Source: a virus
Taxonomy: Duplodnaviria; Heunggongvirae; Uroviricota; Caudoviricetes
Direction: 5' to 3' (one strand)
Length of the DNA stretch: 6,833 bases
IMG/VR virus record: IMGVR_UViG_2663762857_000020
The position numbers were made by a program, and so were the translations under genes. The notes beneath the pieces were generated by a model. It worked only from the letters and a program-made list of their open reading frames with translations. It had not been told where the DNA came from and searched no databases. Of this stretch, positions 772 to 6,833 are shown piece by piece. Position 1 is the stretch's first letter. Every line of letters starts with the position of its first letter.

Positions 772-987
772 ATGTACCAGATGGAAAAAATCACAACAGG
801 TGTGTCATACACCACGTCAGCGGTGGGAACGGGCTACTGGTTCCTGCAGTTGCTGGACAGGGTTTCCCCGTCTCAGTGGGCGGCAATAGGCGTGCTGGGG
901 AGTCTGTTGTTTGGGCTGCTGACATATCTGACTAACCTGTATTTCAAAATCAGAGAGGACCGTCGTAAGGCGGCGCGGGGAGAGTAA
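772..987 (+). CDS. essQ: Class II holin / pinholin of the phage 21 S21 (EssD/EssQ) family, 71 aa, with dual-start motif
   Basis: Protein [71 protein letters not shown] matches recalled S21/EssD/EssQ sequence nearly residue for residue. Two transmembrane segments, charged C-terminus, Met1 and Met4 starts, strong SD GGGAGACGGGG at 760-770. Confidence 0.9.
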
Positions 988-991
988 AGCG

Positions 992-1336
992 ATGAAGAAA
1001 AAATACGAACTGGTTGTTAAAGGGATAAATAATTACCCGAATAAGATTACTGTTACTGTGGCACTGGAAATTGGTGGGTATCCGTCACTGTTGTTGCCAG
1101 ATGTGGCGATTAGTCTTGACCGTACTGAAGATGCCACGCTGGAGTTTTACGAAGCTGAGGCGAAAAAGCAGGCGAAGCAGTTTTTCATGGATGTTGCTGC
1201 CGGGTTATGTGAAGGGGATGGTCCGTTGCCGGAAAAGCGCCCCGTAATTTTAGAGGCGCAGGATGTGTTGATAACCTACAGAGGAAAACTACCGGGAATA
1301 ATTACTGGTTCTCTGAAGACTCCACCGCTGGCCTGA
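992..1336 (+). CDS. Small hypothetical protein (114 aa) between holin and endolysin; tentatively DUF1327/YdfR-like
   Basis: ORF starts 4 nt after the holin stop, with GGGGAGAG upstream (translational coupling likely). It occupies the position of ydfR between essQ and rrrQ in the E. coli Qin prophage. The family assignment is from memory of gene order, not sequence comparison. Confidence 0.6.
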   Translation: MKKKYELVVKGINNYPNKITVTVALEIGGYPSLLLPDVAISLDRTEDATLEFYEAEAKKQAKQFFMDVAAGLCEGDGPLPEKRPVILEAQDVLITYRGKLPGIITGSLKTPPLA

Positions 1337-1386
1337 AGACTTAACATATCCAGGGATTTGAAATCGATAAACCCTGATAAATATCC

Positions 1387-2424
1387 ATGAACACCAAAAT
1401 CAAATACGGCCTGTCGGCTGCCGTTCTGGCGCTGATTGCCGCAGGTGCGCCTGCGCCTGAAATCCTCGACCAGTTTCTGGATGAAAAGGAAGGTAACCAC
1501 ACCACGGCATACCGTGATGGCGCGGGTATCTGGACCATCTGCCGCGGTGCCATCCTGGTGGATAGTAAACCTGTCGTTCCGGGCATGAAGTTGTCGAAGG
1601 AAAAATGCGACCAGGTTAACGCCATTGAGCGTGATAAAGCGCTGGCGTGGGTGGAGAAAAACATCAGAGTGCCGCTGACCGAACCCCAGAAAGCGGGGAT
1701 CGCGTCATTCTGTCCGTACAACATTGGTCCCGGTAAGTGTTTCCCGTCGACGTTTTACAGACGAATTAATGCTGGTGATCGCAGGGGAGCATGCGAGGCG
1801 ATTCGCTGGTGGATTAAGGACGGTGAGCGGTATTTTTTCTGTAATGAGCTGAATGAAAAAGGGGAGCCGGTCACCTGGCAGGGGCGGCAATATCAGGCGT
1901 ACCCGATTGAGGGGAGTGGCTTTGAGATGAACGGAAAGGGCAGCAGTGCCCGCCCGTCGCTGACGGTGTCCAATCTTTTCGGCCTTGTCACCGGAATGGC
2001 GGAGGATTTGCAGAGCCTGGTGGGGGCCACGGTGGTCCGCCGCCGGGTGTATGCCCGTTTTCTGGATGCGGTGAATTTCGTTGCGGGCAATCCGGAAGCG
2101 GACCCGGAGCAGGAGCTGAGTGACCGCTGGGTGGTGGAGCAGATGTCGCAGCTGACAGCCATGACGGCCTCGTTTGTGCTGGCCACACCGACCGAGACGG
2201 ACGGGGCGCTGTTTCCCGGTCGTATCATGCTGGCGAACACCTGTATGTGGACCTACCGCTCTGATGAGTGTGGTTACACGGGCGGGGCTGTGGCGGATGA
2301 GTTCGATAAACCCACCACGGATATCCGTAAGGACAGATGCAGCAAGTGCATGCGCGGGTGTGAACTGCGCAGGAATGTCGGCAATTTTGGCGGTTTCCTT
2401 TCCATTAATAAACTTTCGCAGTAA
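1387..2424 (+). CDS. Chimeric ORF (345 aa): SAR-type lysozyme of the R21/RrrD family (T4-lysozyme-like, GH24), residues ~1-146, fused in frame to the C-terminal ~198 residues of lambda-type minor tail protein L
   Basis: N-terminus has a Gly/Ala-rich SAR segment (YGLSAAVLALIAAGAPAP) and the E-8aa-D-5aa-T catalytic spacing (E35, D44, T50 in EGNHTTAYRDGAGIWT). From ERYFFCNELNEKGEPVTWQGRQYQ to the C-terminal NVGNFGGFLSINKLSQ it matches recalled lambda L from about residue 33 onward, including the four C-terminal cysteines. Junction is at codons 146/147 (nt 1822-1827). The lysozyme C-terminus and the L N-terminus are both missing. Confidence 0.8.
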   Translation: MNTKIKYGLSAAVLALIAAGAPAPEILDQFLDEKEGNHTTAYRDGAGIWTICRGAILVDSKPVVPGMKLSKEKCDQVNAIERDKALAWVEKNIRVPLTEPQKAGIASFCPYNIGPGKCFPSTFYRRINAGDRRGACEAIRWWIKDGERYFFCNELNEKGEPVTWQGRQYQAYPIEGSGFEMNGKGSSARPSLTVSNLFGLVTGMAEDLQSLVGATVVRRRVYARFLDAVNFVAGNPEADPEQELSDRWVVEQMSQLTAMTASFVLATPTETDGALFPGRIMLANTCMWTYRSDECGYTGGAVADEFDKPTTDIRKDRCSKCMRGCELRRNVGNFGGFLSINKLSQ

Positions 2425-2434
2425 ATCCCGGTTT

Positions 2435-3178
2435 ATGACACAGACTGAATCAGCGATTCTGGCGCATGCCCGGCGGTGTGCGCCTGCGGAGTCGTGCGGC
2501 TTCGTGATAAGCACGCCGGAGGGCAACCAGTACCAGCCGTGCGTGAATATCTCTGCAGAGCCTGAGGCGTATTTTCGTATCGCACCGGAAGACTGGCTGC
2601 GGGCAGAGATGCAGGGGGAGATTGTGGCACTGGTCCACAGTCATCCCGGTGGTCTGCCCTGGCTGAGCGAGGCTGACCGGCGGCTGCAGATAAAAAGCGC
2701 ACTGCCCTGGTGGCTGGTCAGCCGGGGTGACATTCACAAATTCCGCTGTGTGCCACATCTGACAGGACGGCGCTTTGCGCACGGGGTGACGGACTGTTAC
2801 ACGCTGTTCCGGGATGCATACCATCTGGCAGGCATTGATATGCCGGATTTTCACCGTGAGGATGACTGGTGGTGCAACGGTCAGAACCTTTACCTGGACA
2901 ATATGGAGGAAACGGGCTTTTACCGGGTGCCCCTGTCCTCTGCACTGCCGGGCGATATCCTGCTGTGCTGCTTCGGCGCATCGGTGGCTAATCATGCCGC
3001 CATTTACTGCGGCAACGGTGAACTGCTTCACCATCTGCCTGAACAACTGAGTAAACGGGAGAGGTATTCCGAAAAATGGCAACGACGAACGCATTCTGTC
3101 TGGCGTCACCGCCACTGGCACGCATCTGCCTTCACGGGGATTTACAACGATTTGGCCGCCGCCTCAGCCTGTATGTGA
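2435..3178 (+). CDS. K: Tail tip assembly protein K (MPN/JAMM-like plus NlpC/P60-like domains), 247 aa
   Basis: Near-colinear match to recalled lambda K (MTQTESAILAHARRCAPAESCGFVISTPEG...). HSHPGGLPWLSEAD (HxH...S..D) JAMM-like motif, and NlpC/P60-type Cys (GVTDCYTLF) and His (NHAAIY). Starts 11 nt after the L-fusion stop. Confidence 0.9.
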   Translation: MTQTESAILAHARRCAPAESCGFVISTPEGNQYQPCVNISAEPEAYFRIAPEDWLRAEMQGEIVALVHSHPGGLPWLSEADRRLQIKSALPWWLVSRGDIHKFRCVPHLTGRRFAHGVTDCYTLFRDAYHLAGIDMPDFHREDDWWCNGQNLYLDNMEETGFYRVPLSSALPGDILLCCFGASVANHAAIYCGNGELLHHLPEQLSKRERYSEKWQRRTHSVWRHRHWHASAFTGIYNDLAAASACM

Positions 3179-3756
3179 ACACGGCAGCGGAAGCCATCCG
3201 CGCACTGTCGATGCAGGTGCCGGGCTTTCGCCGTCAGATGAACGAAGGCTGGTACCAGATACGCATTGCCGGTGAGGATACGGCACCGGAGGCGGTGTAT
3301 GCCCGCCTTCACGAACCACTGAGTGAGGGAACGGTTATCCATATTGTGCCGCGACTGGCCGGGGCCGGAAAGGGAGGACTGCAGATTGTGCTGGGGGCGG
3401 CAGCCATCGTGGGCTCTTTCCTCACTGCCGGTGCCTCGATGGCGTTATGGGGTACAGCCCTGAGTGCCGGCGGTTTTTCTGCCACCACGATGCTGTTTTC
3501 ACTGGGGGCCAGCATGATTCTGGGTGGTGTGGCCCAGATGCTGGCCCCGAAGGCAAAAACACCGGATTACCGCGCAACGGATAACGGCAGACAGAACACG
3601 TATTTTTCGTCACTGGACAACATGATTGCCCAGGGTAACCCGATGCCGGTGCCTTACGGGGAAATGCTGGTTGGCTCCCGCCGTATATCCCAGGACATCA
3701 GTACCCGTGATGAAGGCGGGTGCGGAAAGGTCGTGGTTATCGGGCGGCAGGGGTAA
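3076..3756 (+). CDS. I: Tail tip assembly protein I, 226 aa
   Basis: Matches recalled lambda I family (...LHGDLQRFGRRLSLYVNTAAEAIRALSMQVPGFRRQMNEGWYQIRIAGED...). Overlaps the 3' end of K by 103 nt in another frame, the same arrangement I recall for lambda K/I. SD GGGAGAGG at 3057-3064. Confidence 0.9.
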   Translation: MATTNAFCLASPPLARICLHGDLQRFGRRLSLYVNTAAEAIRALSMQVPGFRRQMNEGWYQIRIAGEDTAPEAVYARLHEPLSEGTVIHIVPRLAGAGKGGLQIVLGAAAIVGSFLTAGASMALWGTALSAGGFSATTMLFSLGASMILGGVAQMLAPKAKTPDYRATDNGRQNTYFSSLDNMIAQGNPMPVPYGEMLVGSRRISQDISTRDEGGCGKVVVIGRQG

Positions 3757-3760
3757 AAAG

Positions 3761-3798
3761 AATAAAAAAAATCCCGCAGTGATCGCGGAGCTGCGGGG
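3761..3798 (-). terminator. Rho-independent terminator, minus strand
   Basis: Minus-strand RNA reads CCCCGCAG-(11-nt loop)-CUGCGGG followed directly by UUUUUUUU (+ strand A-run 3763-3770). 7-bp GC-rich stem at 3773-3779 / 3791-3797. No U-tract follows the stem on the + strand. Confidence 0.7.
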
Positions 3799-3858
3799 AC
3801 AGACAAAGATTAGAGTTAAGGAGTTGTTTTTGTTACTCGGGCAAAAAAACACTAACGC
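3762..3858 (-). ncRNA. Candidate small RNA (~95 nt) in the I-J intergenic insert, antisense to the tail operon
   Basis: Bounded by the minus-strand promoter at 3865-3892 (predicted start near G at 3858) and the terminator at 3761-3798. No ATG in the transcribed segment. Predicted RNA has a 5' stem (GUUUUUU / AAAAAC), a single-stranded CA-rich and CU-rich region (AACAAAAACAACUCCUUAACUCUAAUCUUUGUCUGU) and a terminator with U-tail, the layout typical of Hfq-dependent sRNAs. Confidence 0.45.
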
Positions 3859-3864
3859 AGCGAA

Positions 3865-3892
3865 ATTATACGCGCCACAGTCAGTTTGTGAA
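3865..3892 (-). promoter_or_regulatory. Sigma70-type promoter, minus strand: -35 TTCACA, 16-bp spacer, -10 TATAAT
   Basis: Minus strand reads TTCACAaactgactgtggcgcgTATAAT. The -10 is a perfect consensus (+ strand 3865-3870), the -35 is 5/6 (+ strand 3887-3892), and a purine sits 7 nt downstream. Confidence 0.5.
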
Positions 3893-3964
3893 AATGTGAA
3901 GATATTCAGAATTTTTATGCCATTACCGGTTTTTACCAACAGGATTATCGGTGGACATGAAAGA

Positions 3965-3999
3965 AAACCCCGGTATCTGCTGATACCGGGGTTTCTCTT
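3965..3999. terminator. Strong GC-rich hairpin, terminator-like in both orientations
   Basis: Stem AAACCCCGGTATC (3965-3977) pairs with GATACCGGGGTTT (3982-3994) around a 4-nt loop TGCT. Followed on the + strand by TTTCTCTTT; on the minus strand the stem is followed by a U-rich stretch. A second short inverted repeat, AGCATG (4001-4006) / CATGCT (4021-4026), follows. Confidence 0.35.
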
Positions 4000-4097
4000 T
4001 AGCATGGCAGAAATGTGTTTCATGCTTTTCGGGCGAAGGATATCCGACTTCTGTACGGAATGGCAAGTGGCGGTTAATTTATTCAGGGGAAGGCTGT

Positions 4098-6833
4098 ATG
4101 GGAAAAGGTGGCGGTAAGGCACACACGCCTCGTGAGGCGAAGGATAATCTCAAATCCACGCAGATGATGAGCGTGATTGATGCGGTTGGTGAGGGACCGA
4201 TAGAAGGCCCGGTGAAGGGACTGCAGAGTATCCTGGTGAACAAAACCCCGCTGACGGACACGGACGGTAATCCCGTGATACACGGTGTGACGGCGGTCTG
4301 GCGCGCCGGGGAGCAGGAGCAGACACCACCGGAAGGCTTTGAGTCCTCCGGAGCTGAAACTGTACTGGGCGTGGAAGTGACGAAGGCAAAACCGGTGACG
4401 CGCACCATTACGTCCGCGAACATTGACCGCCTGCGGGTTACCTTCGGGGTGCAGTCACTGGTGCAGACCACGTCAAAGGGTGACCGAAACCCGACATCCG
4501 TCCGCCTGCTGATTCAGTTACAGCGTAACGGTAACTGGGTGACAGAAAAGGATGTCACCATTAACGGCAAGACCACCTCGCAGTTTCTGGCGTCGGTGAT
4601 TCTGGATAATCTGCCTCCCCGTCCTTTTAACATCCGGATGGTCCGGGAGACGGCGGACAGCACCACGGACCAGTTGCAGAACAGAACACTCTGGTCATCG
4701 TACACCGAAATCATCGATGTGAAACAGTGCTACCCGAACACGGCGATTGTGGGGCTGCAGGTGGATGCGGAGCAGTTCGGTGGTCAGCAGATGACGGTGA
4801 ACTACCATATCCGCGGTCGCATCATCCAGGTGCCGTCAAACTATGACCCGGAAAAACGCACCTACAGCGGTATCTGGGACGGCAGTCTGAAACCGGCATA
4901 CAGCAACAACCCGGCCTGGTGCCTGTGGGACATGCTGACTCACCCGCGCTACGGGATGGGAAAACGTCTGGGGGCGGCGGATGTGGACAAGTGGGCGCTG
5001 TATGCCATCGGGCAGTACTGCGACCAGACGGTCCCGGATGGTTTCGGGGGCACAGAGCCGCGGATGACCTTTAATGCGTACCTGGCACAACAGCGTAAGG
5101 CGTGGGACGTTCTCAGTGATTTCTGCTCGGCGATGCGCTGTATGCCGGTATGGAACGGCCAGACGCTGACGTTCGTTCAGGACCGCCCGTCGGATGTGGT
5201 GTGGCCGTACACCAACAGCGATGTGGTGGTGGATGATAACGGCGTGGGGTTCCGCTACAGCTTCAGTGCCCTGAAGGACCGGCACACGGCGGTGGAGGTG
5301 AATTACACCGACCCGCAGAACGGCTGGCAGACCTCCACGGAACTGGTGGAAGACCCGGAAGCCATACTGCGCTACGGACGCAACCTGCTGAAGATGGATG
5401 CGTTCGGCTGCACCAGTCGCGGTCAGGCCCACCGTGCCGGGCTGTGGGTGATAAAGACAGAACTGCTGGAAACGCAGACGGTGGATTTCACACTCGGGTC
5501 ACAGGGGCTGCGGCACACACCCGGTGACATCATTGAAATCTGTGATAACGACTATGCCGGAACCCTGACCGGCGGACGTGTCCTGTCCATTGATGCTGCC
5601 ACCCGCACCCTGACGCTGGACCGTGAAGTGACACTTCCGGGGACAGGTACATCGACGGTGAACCTGATTAACGGCAGCGGTAAGCCGGTGAGTGTGGACA
5701 TCACCGCACACCCCGCGCCGGACCGGATACAGGTCAGTACCCTGCCTGATGGTGTGGAGACATACGGGGTGTGGGGACTCTCCCTGCCGTCACTGCGCCG
5801 TCGCCTGTTCCGCTGTGTCTCCATCCGGGAAAACACGGACGGCACCTTTGCCATCACGGCGGTGCAGCACGTACCGGAAAAAGAAGCCATTGTGGATAAC
5901 GGAGCCCGCTTTGAGCCGCAGTCAGGCACCCTGAACAGCGTTATCCCACCGGCAGTACAGCACCTCACGGTGGAGGTGAGCGCAGCTGACAGCCAGTATC
6001 TGGCGCTGGCGAAATGGGACACGCCGAGGGTGGTGAAGGGCGTGCGCTTCAGTCTGCGCCTGACCAGTGGAAGCGATGAGAACAGCCGCCTGCTGACCAC
6101 CGCCATCACTGCCGATACGGAGCACCGTTTCAGTGGCCTGCCTCTCGGGGAATACACCCTGACGGTCAGGGCGATAAACAGCTACGGCCAGCAGGGCGAA
6201 CCGGCCACCACCACGTTCCGGATTAATGCGCCTGCAGCACCGGCCACCATTGAGCTGACGCCGGGGTATTTTCAGATAACGGCGGTACCGCGTCTTGCGG
6301 TGTATGACCCGACGGTGCAGTTTGAGTTCTGGTTTTCGGAGGCAAAAATTGCAGACGCCGCACAGGTGGAAACCTCTGCCCGTTATCTGGGGACCGGCAG
6401 TCAGTGGAGTGTCTCCGGTCCGCACATTAAGCCCGGAAAGGATTTCTGGTTTTATGTGCGCAGCGTCAACCTGGTGGGTAAATCTGCTTTTGTGGAAGCC
6501 AGTGGACGGGCGAGCAATGATGCTGCGGGCTATCTGGAACTTTTCCGGGAAAAGATAGGAAAAACGCATCTGGCAGAGGCGCTGTGGGCAGAGATTGACA
6601 ACAGTCAGCTGAAGGACGAGATGGCGGAAATGCAGACCACCATCACCGAAACCCGCAATGAAATCACACAGACGGTCAGTAAAACGCTGGAGGACCAGAG
6701 CGCCACCATACAGCAAATCCAGCGTGTGCAGACGGACACCCGTAATGACCTGAACAGCATGTGGGCGGTGAAGCTGCAGAAGATGCAGGACGGACGCCTT
6801 TATATTGCCGGTATTGGTGCAGGCATTGAGAAT
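4098..6833 (+). CDS. J: Tail tip / host specificity protein J, N-terminal 912 codons (3' end beyond the window)
   Basis: ATG at 4098 with SD AGGGGAAGG. Hand translation is open and in frame to the window end. Matches recalled lambda J from the N-terminus (MGKG..HTPREAKDNLKSTQ..) through conserved blocks (NPAWCLWDMLTHPRYGMGKRLGAADVDKWALY, RLFRCVSIRENTDGTFAITAVQHVPEKEAIVDNGA, VYDPTVQFEFWFSE). The last ~100 residues in the window diverge from lambda. Confidence 0.95.
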   Translation, partial: MGKGGGKAHTPREAKDNLKSTQMMSVIDAVGEGPIEGPVKGLQSILVNKTPLTDTDGNPVIHGVTAVWRAGEQEQTPPEGFESSGAETVLGVEVTKAKPVTRTITSANIDRLRVTFGVQSLVQTTSKGDRNPTSVRLLIQLQRNGNWVTEKDVTINGKTTSQFLASVILDNLPPRPFNIRMVRETADSTTDQLQNRTLWSSYTEIIDVKQCYPNTAIVGLQVDAEQFGGQQMTVNYHIRGRIIQVPSNYDPEKRTYSGIWDGSLKPAYSNNPAWCLWDMLTHPRYGMGKRLGAADVDKWALYAIGQYCDQTVPDGFGGTEPRMTFNAYLAQQRKAWDVLSDFCSAMRCMPVWNGQTLTFVQDRPSDVVWPYTNSDVVVDDNGVGFRYSFSALKDRHTAVEVNYTDPQNGWQTSTELVEDPEAILRYGRNLLKMDAFGCTSRGQAHRAGLWVIKTELLETQTVDFTLGSQGLRHTPGDIIEICDNDYAGTLTGGRVLSIDAATRTLTLDREVTLPGTGTSTVNLINGSGKPVSVDITAHPAPDRIQVSTLPDGVETYGVWGLSLPSLRRRLFRCVSIRENTDGTFAITAVQHVPEKEAIVDNGARFEPQSGTLNSVIPPAVQHLTVEVSAADSQYLALAKWDTPRVVKGVRFSLRLTSGSDENSRLLTTAITADTEHRFSGLPLGEYTLTVRAINSYGQQGEPATTTFRINAPAAPATIELTPGYFQITAVPRLAVYDPTVQFEFWFSEAKIADAAQVETSARYLGTGSQWSVSGPHIKPGKDFWFYVRSVNLVGKSAFVEASGRASNDAAGYLELFREKIGKTHLAEALWAEIDNSQLKDEMAEMQTTITETRNEITQTVSKTLEDQSATIQQIQRVQTDTRNDLNSMWAVKLQKMQDGRLYIAGIGAGIEN

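Follow-up and report, generated by a model that had tools for sequence, protein, structure and literature searches.

In phage 21 and DLP12, the lysozyme gene lies directly 3′ of the holin gene. The arrangement in which a ydfR gene separates the two is already known and routine in E. coli lambdoid prophages, where it is annotated in thousands of genomes: the order holin-ydfR-lysozyme is annotated in K-12 Qin (essQ-ydfR-rrrQ), H-19B, mEp460, PhiR42_1, and the E. coli genomes inspected, and proteins identical to the one described here carry the PGAP label "YdfR family protein." Of 5426 complete E. coli genomes, 3006, or more than half, contain a match to the ydfR of the window. The K-12 protein binds the N-terminal half of RNase E, as seen by two-hybrid and pull-down, and co-purifies with DNase-resistant nucleic acid, for which the authors do not exclude a contaminant as the source of the RNA signal; few transcripts are altered upon ydfR overexpression, growth arrest is reported for overproduction of YegJ only and not of YdfR, and hardly any RNA-seq reads map to K-12 ydfR in standard growth conditions (PMC13232886). 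As far as the study is cited there, ydfR is also among the envelope-integrity hits of a Keio-collection screen (Paradis-Bleau 2014, cited in PMC13232886), a result that could be explained by a polar effect on the downstream SAR lysozyme.

We analyzed a locus of this type in the virus record IMGVR_UViG_2663762857_000020 from IMG/VR; the window refers to the whole stretch of 6,833 nucleotides. Positions 772–1389 cover the promoter-proximal portion of the lysis cassette of a lambdoid (Stx-phage-like) prophage, in which a class II holin of the phage 21 family is followed by a DUF1327/YdfR gene and then by an R21/RrrQ-type SAR lysozyme. A preliminary description of this DNA had likened the order to essQ-ydfR-rrrQ of K-12 Qin, and our comparison confirmed that the arrangement is the same.

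Gene content of the window and the lysozyme::L chimera

The following features were assigned in the window:

186–380, + strand: DUF1378 small ORF, 64 aa (PF07125, E=8.9e-35)
406–696, + strand: DUF826 ORF, 96 aa (PF05696, E=1.9e-28; phrog_311)
706–745, + strand: terminator-like hairpin with a 12-bp stem and a T-rich tail, between DUF826 and the holin (consensus scan)
749–764, + strand: small predicted hairpin CUUCCG-AGUA-CGGGAG in which the GGAG preceding Met1 of the holin is sequestered (RNA folding)
772–987, + strand: class II holin (phage 21 S family), 71 aa when counted from Met1 and 68 aa from Met4 at 781 (PF04971)
975–991, + strand: coupling junction, with GGGGAGAG in the last holin codons, the stop TAA (985–987), and the 4-nt spacer AGCG (sequence)
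992–1336, + strand: YdfR-family (DUF1327) gene, 114 aa (PF07041, E=2.4e-45; phrog_406)
1337–1386, + strand: 50-nt spacer upstream of the lysozyme start, without a purine-rich Shine-Dalgarno sequence (sequence comparison)
1387–1824, + strand: RrrQ/R21-type SAR lysozyme, 5′ 146 codons, with the C-terminal ~31 codons missing (PF00959; RrrQ identity)
1817–1825, no strand: deletion junction AGGACGGTG, where similarity to lysis cassettes ends and similarity to tail genes begins
1825–2424, + strand: lambda-type minor tail protein L, 3′ ~199 codons, in frame with the lysozyme fragment (PF05100)
2435–3178, + strand: tail tip protein K (JAB/MPN and NlpC/P60; PF14464, PF00877)
3076–3756, + strand: tail assembly protein I (PF06805)
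4099–6833, + strand: tip attachment/host specificity protein J, 5′ part, running off the window (phage matches, sequence read)

The three-gene pattern at 772–1389 is more than a run of chance ORFs. The DUF1378 ORF is a typical upstream neighbor of this type of lysis cassette, and both this ORF and the DUF826 ORF are also present in E. coli CEA601S and Stx2a_F451; neither was matched by the PADLOC defence models. The hairpin at 706–745 may represent the 3′ end of an sRNA, and an Rfam scan of the window returned nothing at gathering thresholds. At the other end, the protein J region shows contiguous matches of 91–95% that are annotated as protein J in many phages.

The lysozyme is 88% identical to RrrQ over RrrQ residues 1–148 of 177, where the similarity ends, and its match to PF00959 (residues 33–147, E=3.7e-21) stops at profile position 112 of 125. 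Its catalytic triad reads E35-x8-D44-x5-T50. Residues 7–24 (YGLSAAVLALIAAGAPAP), which come after Lys4 and Lys6, form a weakly hydrophobic SAR-like segment composed of 56% Gly/Ala/Ser/Thr. Full-length RrrQ aligns to the SAR endolysin R21 (PDB 3HDE), residue 9 of 177 to residue 5 of 165, and also to R21 3HDF and RrrD 4ZPU; the start of the alignment with R21 presumably runs through the SAR segment of that protein. The SAR N-terminus that the preliminary description had assigned to this enzyme is thus supported both by its own residues 7–24 and by the RrrQ-R21 alignment, with release from the membrane as a prediction. The catalytic domain is incomplete, with tail protein L sequence from residue 146 onward.

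Indeed, the lysozyme ORF continues to position 2424 as an in-frame lysozyme::minor tail protein L chimera, in which lysozyme codons 1–146 precede residues (146–343) that match PF05100 (E=1.4e-91; phrog_18/phrog_4199). Matches to E. coli lysis cassettes end at window position 1825, and matches to phage tail regions start at 1817 or 1822. The chimera would have arisen by a deletion, involving microhomology of up to 9 nt, that joined lysozyme codon ~146 to codon ~34 of L. This event cost the prophage the C-terminal end of its lysozyme, its spanins, and every gene for packaging, head, and tail shaft. Intact relatives carry Rz 0.3–1 kb downstream of the endolysin; here, no spanin genes (Rz/Rz1 or equivalent) were found, and the lysozyme frame leading into L and then K, I, and J leaves no room for them. 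Since the deletion fused the lysozyme to tail gene L, the lysis cassette is broken, and the loss of spanin, packaging, head, and tail-shaft genes makes the locus a defective prophage remnant; from its gene content, the cassette in the window is predicted to be one that cannot work as a whole. The same junction is present in another IMG/VR locus (L017), which is 99.24% identical over 5287 nt; among IMG taxa, it is carried by 2660238352. It was absent in one piece from all complete E. coli genomes searched, and E. coli CEA601S has a different deletion, Rz::L.

Holin start codons and the junction with ydfR

The holin (MYQMEK...) matches the Pfam profile PF04971, "Bacteriophage P21 holin S," with E=9e-33 and 112.5 bits (cut-off 26) over profile positions 1–63 of 64, is assigned as a holin to phrog_9876/phrog_20, and shares 79% identity with K-12 EssQ. 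What the preliminary description had called a pinholin does belong to the phage 21 S family. In terms of composition only, the protein displays the two-TMD pattern predicted for a class II holin, with a first segment rich in G/A/S/T (TMD1, residues 7–28, 50%) and a strongly hydrophobic second one (TMD2, residues 35–57) that is the most hydrophobic stretch and contains the highest Kyte-Doolittle window (1.99). From its family membership only, the holin would be predicted to form small heptameric pinholes, which depolarize the membrane, as opposed to large holes.

The same description had read the start of this gene as a dual start yielding antiholin and holin, a reading borne out for the two codons only. 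Both ATG codons are present, at 772 (Met1) and 781 (Met4), and the M-x-x-M start is common to EssQ (MKSM), mEp460, phi80, and L113 (MYRM in the last two); MDQM also occurs, and Met1 is absent altogether in one holin lineage of at least 11 related loci. What defines the antiholins S21-71 and S107 is one additional residue with positive charge at the N-terminus (review PMC9636201). The extension between Met1 and Met4, Met-Tyr-Gln, adds no positive charge, so that production of antiholin and holin from one gene is undemonstrated for the MYQM allele. The uncharged extension thereby constitutes a natural test of whether class II antiholin behavior needs charge. The hairpin at 749–764 is a possible, weakly indicated start-choice element: folding of positions 735–800 gives z=-2.2, and nine diverse holin leaders share a consensus hairpin of five pairs, three of which show compensatory changes.

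The ydfR ATG begins 4 nt past the holin stop, and a Shine-Dalgarno-like GGAG lies inside the terminal holin codons. The holin stop was followed by 3–4 nt and the ydfR ATG in 152 of 152 assessable loci, the spacer measuring 4 nt in 127 and 3 nt in 25. Spacer, GGAG, and the invariance of the pattern all agree with the apparent translational coupling of the 114-aa gene to the holin that had been proposed earlier. RNA structure at this junction was no better than that of shuffled sequences (z=+0.8), and a crude consensus scan found neither a promoter before ydfR nor a terminator after it. Natural read-through fusions of holin and YdfR also occur (P0010 and P0067).

In phages without ydfR, the stop + 4 nt + ATG arrangement serves the lysozyme instead. 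Shigella phage POCJ13, whose holin is 100% identical to that of the window, and Stx2a_F451 (98.6%) both lack ydfR and have the lysozyme 4 nt past the holin stop. Relatives without ydfR use this ATG as the lysozyme start, whereas here and in Qin it opens ydfR; ydfR has therefore been inserted precisely at the S-R junction, where it has taken over the holin-embedded coupling site. The insertion is optional, given that direct coupling of the lysozyme is seen in phages whose holin is 100% identical. Among 436 phage records with this holin type, 101 (about 23%) have ydfR. The 3′ side of the insertion is variable, with the ATG codons of ydfR and the lysozyme 308 to 1596 nt apart, and in E. coli-type loci an RrrQ-type SAR lysozyme always comes after ydfR. 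The 50-nt spacer of the window is homologous to the spacer in phage Evi and contains no stable RNA structure beyond shuffles (z=-0.18). As a side effect, the insertion would probably lower or uncouple lysozyme translation.

The YdfR domain and its distant homologues

The Pfam search that had been suggested for the 114-aa protein matched DUF1327 with 153.1 bits (cut-off 25). The protein is 47% identical to K-12 YdfR across residues 1–74 (E=5e-23), which, together with the coupling observed in all assessable loci, bears out the suspicion that the interposed gene is homologous to Qin ydfR and kept in lysis cassettes. YdfR consists of a conserved N-terminal domain (residues 1–73) and a conserved but low-confidence C-terminal segment (residues 74–114). 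The AF2 model is a beta-beta-beta-helix with pLDDT of 73–91 for residues 1–70 (means per 10-residue block) and below 50 for residues 74–114. No strongly hydrophobic segment was found, the best 17-residue Kyte-Doolittle mean being 1.47 versus 1.99 for holin TMD2; given the lack of a membrane segment, YdfR is likely to stay in the cytoplasm. Among 29 different 114-codon ydfR alleles, the ORF is intact in all and dN/dS is ~0.5, indicating purifying selection that is only moderate; the ORF is also kept intact in thousands of genomes. The N-terminal domain is conserved across Enterobacterales down to ~30% identity and is all that YdfR-family proteins of 103, 114, 176, 183, 206, and 287 aa have in common.

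Fold searches returned no match supporting any YdfR activity. Foldseek of the AF2 model against PDB and BFVD gave nothing at E≤0.001, and the PADLOC defence models did not match YdfR. Comparison of the YdfR profile with PDB chains produced chance matches only (E>1), and a likeness of the beta-beta-beta-helix to ADAR1 dsRBD3 and Mgm101 was set aside, as E values of about 0.3–0.4 are not evidence. Similarity to any known antiholin was likewise absent from phrog, Pfam, PDB-sequence, and Foldseek searches.

Homologues consisting of the DUF1327 core only, 72–76 aa long, were found in Yersinia, Pantoea, Sodalis, and Enterobacter prophages. With the related gene of phage Evi, they occupy the following positions:

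Between I and J: L093, L095, L111, L090
Between M and L: L094
Between the tape measure gene (H) and the next tail gene (M): L120, L091
After Rz/Rz1: L113
Between Q and a class I holin: L092
Between holin and lysozyme (S-R junction): phage Evi

In 10 of 10 of these loci (the nine L loci and phage Evi, with L090 and L094 assigned by eye only), a convergent ORF of 79–110 aa lies directly 3′ of the DUF1327 core. The partner ORFs belong to two recurrent phage families, phrog_25324 (as in phage Evi) or phrog_10490 (as in a Yersinia prophage); a Pfam search assigned them to no family, and PADLOC defence models did not match them. The tail-operon copies of DUF1327 are preceded by a conserved leader, GCCGAAAGGC-GGAG, upstream of the start. 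An Rfam search of the I-J spacer gave sub-threshold hits only (best E=0.046), and a contig scan with a narrower DUF1327 alignment returned a single locus, in Pantoea.

Possible roles of YdfR and relation to known systems

Since its distant homologues lie between tail genes next to a convergent ORF, YdfR looks like a mobile late-operon passenger and not a lysis protein. We consider it quite probable that the anatomy of the cassette is as laid out above and that YdfR is an optional passenger ("moron") rather than a core lysis factor. A lysis role for the interposed gene appears weakened by the occurrence of the same holin without ydfR in phages and of distant homologues in tail operons. As a passenger, YdfR would be produced from late mRNA more or less in parallel with the holin, and its conserved 72-aa core would elsewhere occupy tail-gene junctions together with a convergent small ORF. 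Its most likely activity, which we put forward tentatively, would be to bind RNase E, RNA, or both in the late phase of infection. This proposal is extrapolated from the Qin protein, whose identity to the window YdfR is limited to 47% across 74 residues and whose C-terminus differs.

A function linked to the holin would also be compatible with the strict adjacency and coupling of holin and ydfR, which hold for every E. coli-type locus. YdfR could be a cytoplasmic lysis-timing factor, kept at a fixed ratio to the holin by translational coupling, that binds the basic C-terminal tail of the holin or the SAR lysozyme before export and so delays or sharpens triggering. T4 RIII and P1 LydB are models for such action. 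We regard this role as quite improbable. It accounts for the spacing that recurs in 152 of 152 assessable loci, for the RrrQ-type SAR lysozyme that always comes next in E. coli-type loci, and for the three coupled genes of Qin, where ydfR overlaps the lysozyme start (ATGA), but not for the absence of ydfR from phages that share the identical holin and the lysozyme family, for a presence limited to about 23% of the phage records having this holin type, or for core homologues that lie ahead of a class I holin or among tail genes. Furthermore, YdfR has neither a membrane segment nor similarity to a known antiholin. The envelope-integrity hit, insofar as that screen is cited in PMC13232886 (Paradis-Bleau 2014), is in line with lysis timing, and the growth arrest seen upon overproduction of YegJ only, not YdfR, is not (PMC13232886).

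The convergent ORF raises a different prospect, namely, that the DUF1327 core and phrog_25324 or phrog_10490 make up a two-gene unit, possibly a prophage-expressed effector on the opposite strand and its late-expressed neutralizer, and that the window gene is derived or vestigial, the E. coli S-R version having lost its partner and gained C-terminal extensions. Neither the window nor the other 114-aa-type loci contain a partner ORF, the partners match no defence-system family, and convergent orientation by itself is no proof of functional linkage, so this scenario seems doubtful to us even with a partner next to the core in 10 of 10 core-only loci, its recurrence in two phage families, the leader GCCGAAAGGC-GGAG in the tail-operon copies, and the pair at the S-R junction of phage Evi, which bridges both contexts. 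A broader version, which we also judge unlikely, would have the core and the convergent ORF (phrog_25324/phrog_10490) form a mobile two-gene module whose late product binds RNase E or RNA and of which E. coli YdfR is a partner-less derivative. Such a module would insert at S-R, I-J, M-L, H-M, post-Rz, and Q-S boundaries in siphophage late operons of Enterobacterales, its late-strand product would alter RNA decay late in infection or counteract the partner, and the E. coli lysis-cassette YdfR would ride on holin translation. Finally, the YdfR protein might have no function of its own here, the insertion acting in cis by breaking the translational link between holin and lysozyme, so that less SAR lysozyme is made, or being neutral DNA that hitch-hikes in a recombination hot spot. 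The lysozyme start of the window, which lacks a Shine-Dalgarno sequence while the holin-embedded one is occupied by ydfR, the highly variable 3′ side of ydfR, and the moderate constraint (dN/dS about 0.5) can be read in this way; this is nevertheless highly improbable in light of an ORF intact in 29 different 114-codon alleles and thousands of genomes, an N-terminal domain conserved to about 30% identity across Enterobacterales, a confident in silico fold, and the specific binding partners of the K-12 protein (PMC13232886).

With its standard annotated gene order in a broken remnant, the window copy itself matters little. Of possible interest to phage biologists is that so common a gene, with matches in over half of the complete E. 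coli genomes, sits on the coupling site of the holin and that the first biochemical lead (RNase E, RNA) points away from lysis. In addition, a core domain that travels with a convergent partner between tail genes offers a concrete, testable candidate for a small mobile late-operon module.

As a passenger, ydfR resembles morons such as lambda bor and lom in being an optional small gene between genes that are adjacent in related phages, and in occurring at several different boundaries. Classical morons, which are expressed from the prophage, bring along a promoter and a terminator of their own, whereas ydfR is on the late strand, is apparently translated by coupling, and showed no promoter or terminator in the crude consensus scan. 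The term moron thus applies in a loose sense only. A close likeness is with Stx1/Stx2 phages: YdfR of H-19B, BP-4795, YYZ-2008, and Stx2 phage 86 is 93–97% identical to that of the window, and the holin is 91.5% identical in H-19B and 100% in Stx2 phage 86. H-19B has an identical layout, including the ~50-nt spacer, but with a complete lysozyme and Rz, the window being a deletion derivative.

Qin essQ-ydfR-rrrQ-rzpQ/rzoQ comprises the same three families (holin 79%, lysozyme 88%, and YdfR 47% identical, the last over the N-terminal 74 residues) and the same 4-nt holin-ydfR spacer. Its YdfR, however, is a 103-aa protein with an unrelated C-terminus whose gene overlaps the lysozyme start (ATGA), so that all three lysis genes are coupled, whereas the window has a 114-aa protein and a 50-nt gap. 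EssQ begins with MKSM, including Lys2, instead of MYQM, and Qin retains a full-length lysozyme and spanin genes, in contrast to the truncated lysozyme fused to L. The S21/R21 system of phage 21, found also in DLP12 (essD-rrrD), Stx2a phages, and POCJ13, shares with the window the holin family PF04971, the lysozyme fold, the SAR-type N-terminus, and the E-D-T triad, and in both the 3′ end of the holin gene holds the ribosome-binding site of the next gene. They differ in the extra positive charge of S21-71 (Lys2), which the window holin lacks, and in the gene that follows: in POCJ13 and Stx2a_F451 the lysozyme comes directly after the holin, whereas in the window ydfR is interposed.

The lysis cassette and its prophage

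The gene map below rests on all ORFs of the window, each compared with the Pfam and PHROGs profiles.

Genes of the window (coordinates, strand, identity)
186-380, +, DUF1378 (ORF reading and Pfam/PHROGs)
406-696, +, DUF826 (ORF reading and Pfam/PHROGs)
772-987, +, 71-aa holin (PF04971, "Bacteriophage P21 holin S", E=9e-33)
992-1336, +, 114-aa DUF1327/YdfR protein (PF07041, E=2.4e-45)
1387-2424, +, 345-aa ORF, lysozyme and tail protein L (PF00959 and PF05100)
2435-3178, +, tail tip gene K
3076-3756, +, tail tip gene I
from 4099 and off the window end, +, tail tip gene J

The feature singled out in the preliminary description, a 114-aa gene between a dual-start holin and a signal-arrest-release (SAR) lysozyme, is real, correctly placed and mostly correctly named. 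The order holin, ydfR, lysozyme is a known, very common and routine arrangement, annotated by PGAP in listed E. coli genomes as class II holin family protein, YdfR family protein and lysozyme. Of the 5426 complete E. coli genomes, 3006 gave a megablast match to this ydfR (coverage of at least 80% in 1258), and 101 phage records carry the gene, including H-19B, BP-4795, YYZ-2008, Stx2 phage 86 and mEp460.

The lysozyme has the SAR N-terminus ascribed to it, with two lysines followed by YGLSAAVLALIAAGAPAP (56% Gly/Ala/Ser/Thr) and then E35-x8-D-x5-T. In its full-length relative RrrQ, the region aligned with R21 from residue 9 presumably includes the SAR segment; the alignment from this residue holds for both the crystallised SAR endolysin R21 (3HDE) and RrrD (4ZPU).

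In the 345-aa ORF, parts of two proteins share a reading frame. Lysozyme sequence, 88% identical to residues 1-148 of K-12 RrrQ, makes up residues 1-146, and lambda-type minor tail protein L (E=1.4e-91) makes up residues 146-343, so that lysozyme codons 1-146 are joined in frame to L codons ~34-232 at 1817-1825. Since matches to E. coli lysis cassettes end at 1825 and matches to phage tail regions begin at 1817 or 1822, a deletion joined both genes, with at most 9 nt (AGGACGGTG) shared at the junction. Lost to this deletion were ~31 codons at the lysozyme 3' end, the spanins and the whole stretch from terminase to tail gene M, and thereby the genes for packaging, head and tail shaft. The identical junction occurs in IMG/VR contig L017 (99.24% identity over 5287 nt), and the deletion is therefore real and inherited rather than an assembly accident of one record. 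Among complete E. coli genomes in our collection, none held the lysozyme::L junction in one piece. In E. coli CEA601S (L001, NZ_CP166713.1), a partial Rz gene ("lysis protein") is joined to the last ~49 L codons at 6519-6826. This deletion, in another strain, is independent of that in the window, so the region from lysis cassette to L was lost at least twice, with K-I-J kept. The cassette copy in the window belongs to a defective prophage, and the lysozyme::L chimera is one of three modest novelties of this analysis.

Start codons of the holin

Both start codons reported for the holin, Met1 and Met4, are present (772 and 781) and are kept across most of the family; the N-terminus reads MKSM in EssQ and mEp460, MYRM in phi80 and the collected locus L113, and MYQM in the window. 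S21-71 and lambda S107 owe their antiholin property to one added positive charge in an N-terminal residue (PMC9636201). The Met-Tyr-Gln extension of the window holin adds zero positive charge, position 2 is Asp in one allele, and in one lineage, represented by at least 11 loci, codon 1 is ATA instead of ATG. Because of this missing charge and these variants, the proposal that one gene yields both antiholin and holin is unproven for the window allele. This long holin form lacking a charged residue is the second novelty. A small hairpin is predicted to sequester the GGAG upstream of the holin start (z=-2.2) and recurs in nine diverse holin leaders, with compensatory changes in 3 of 5 pairs, weakly suggesting a regulated choice of start.

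The DUF1327 core at other gene boundaries

The DUF1327/YdfR family is small: only 94 clusters were recovered when 1.84 billion representative proteins were searched with its profile. They include 72-76 aa proteins made of the N-terminal domain alone (core-only), from Yersinia, Pantoea, Sodalis and Enterobacter, whose neighbours were named by tblastn and Pfam.

Positions of short DUF1327 genes, by collected locus (convergent partner ORF coordinates in brackets)
I-J tail gene boundary: L093 (5244-5576), L095 (3882-4163), L111 (5249-5548), L090
M-L boundary: L094
directly after the tape measure gene: L120 (5227-5514), L091
after Rz/Rz1: L113 (5015-5299)
between the antiterminator gene Q and a class I holin of lambda S type: L092
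between holin and lysozyme, short form: phage Evi, L006 (2744-3040)

Directly after the short gene, in nine core-only loci and phage Evi, lies a convergent ORF of 79-110 aa. These partners, assigned by PHROG match in eight of the ten loci and by eye only in L090 and L094, belong to phrog_25324 or phrog_10490, two phage families of unassigned function. They are small and helical, and had no match in Pfam or PADLOC. The DUF1327 core and its convergent partner move among late-operon gene boundaries of Enterobacterales, which is the third modest novelty.

Tail-operon copies have a leader in common, GCCGAAAGGC-GGAG, ahead of their start codon. In L090, L091, L093, L094, L111 and L120 it takes the form (TTAATTAA)-GCCGAAAGGC-(A/G)GGAG-...ATG and lies ~25 nt ahead of the DUF1327 gene, with a GCC-GAAA-GGC tetraloop-like hairpin adjoining the ribosome-binding site; it is common to copies at different tail-gene boundaries.

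The I-J boundary, where other phages carry the DUF1327 module, is occupied in the window by a spacer (3757-4098) with signals of its own, and others lie between the esterase 3' end and the holin.

Candidate small RNA signals in the window
3892 to 3865, -, promoter-like near-consensus site TTCACA-16-TATAAT
3789 to 3773, -, terminator-like hairpin with a T8 run, downstream of that site
3964-3995, strong 14-bp hairpin
706-745, +, terminator-like hairpin just past the DUF826 stop
72-60, -, terminator-like hairpin

Judged by sequence, the minus-strand signals of the spacer could mark a gene for a small RNA (~70-90 nt); the spacer had no Rfam match at threshold. A 2026 preprint (10.64898/2026.05.13.724894) places the prophage sRNA PasB within phage structural operons, and the pasA/pasC sRNA genes between the gene for a sialic-acid esterase and the operon of holin and lysozyme. 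The latter interval corresponds to window ~50-771, from the esterase 3' end to the holin, where the hairpin at 706-745 is a candidate sRNA 3' end and that at 72-60 an alternative.

YdfR at the holin-lysozyme boundary

The signs of the suggested coupling of the 114-aa gene to the holin are present: a 4-nt gap after the holin stop and a GGAG within the last holin codons. We collected 159 E. coli-type ydfR loci from IMG/VR and GenBank; in all 152 that were assessable the holin lies directly upstream, with a gap of 4 nt in 127 and 3 nt in 25. The distance from the ydfR ATG to the lysozyme start is unstable (308-1596 nt), and the proteins are alike only over their first ~74 residues, differing tails giving lengths of 103, 114, 176, 183, 206 or 287 aa. 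Holin-YdfR read-through fusions of 184-187 aa (PF04971 and PF07041; P0010, P0067, P0085 and P0089), one cluster having 13 members, occur in the protein database; holin and ydfR do not share a reading frame, so these fusions need a frameshift, and they are probably sequencing or assembly artefacts.

Shigella phage POCJ13 and Stx2a_F451 have holins 100% and 98.6% identical to that of the window, and their lysozyme begins 4 nt after the holin stop, where ydfR starts in the window. Given this, and since ydfR occurs in only 101 of the 436 phage records that have a holin of this type, the gene is an insertion at the boundary between holin (S) and lysozyme (R) that took the coupling site. YdfR has no strongly hydrophobic segment in its 114 residues and looks cytoplasmic; together with its optional presence and the occurrence of its core elsewhere, this argues that it is not lysis machinery. 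As cited in PMC13232886, a Keio-collection screen placed ydfR among envelope-integrity hits, which in our view could reflect polarity on the SAR lysozyme gene that follows. That 2026 paper holds the only experimental information on YdfR that we found. Two-hybrid libraries yielded K-12 YdfR as a fragment of its first 72 residues; the protein co-purified RNase E 1-598 and eluted with DNase-resistant nucleic acid. According to the authors, YdfR binds RNase G and has a preference for the N-terminal half of RNase E. Its overproduction changed few transcripts, growth arrest was reported only for YegJ, another of the candidates, and the authors call its function unknown (PMC13232886). Our best guess, a tentative one, is a late-expressed RNase E- or RNA-binding passenger protein; that YdfR is an optional passenger and not a core lysis factor is much better supported.

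The AlphaFold model has three strands and a long helix over residues 1-73 (mean pLDDT per 10-residue block 73-91 over residues 1-70), with low confidence over 74-114. No match was found among solved and predicted viral structures (E<=0.001), PDB sequences or defence-system models. Pairwise dN/dS is ~0.5 (29 alleles), so ydfR is constrained, although not strongly. Residues 75-114 (PEKRPVILEAQDVLITYRGKLPGIITGSLKTPP) are near-invariant in family members of 114 to 183 aa, with dN/dS of 0.35 versus 0.62 for the N-terminal domain and pLDDT <50, are absent from K-12 YdfR, and may be a partner-binding motif.

As anticipated, the arrangement is that of the K-12 Qin prophage (essQ-ydfR-rrrQ-rzpQ), with identities of 79% to EssQ, 47% to YdfR (N-terminal 74 residues) and 88% to RrrQ. 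The two differ downstream of ydfR: the insertion leaves the window lysozyme behind a 50-nt spacer, which holds no purine-rich ribosome-binding site, whereas in Qin the lysozyme is re-coupled to ydfR through an ATGA overlap.
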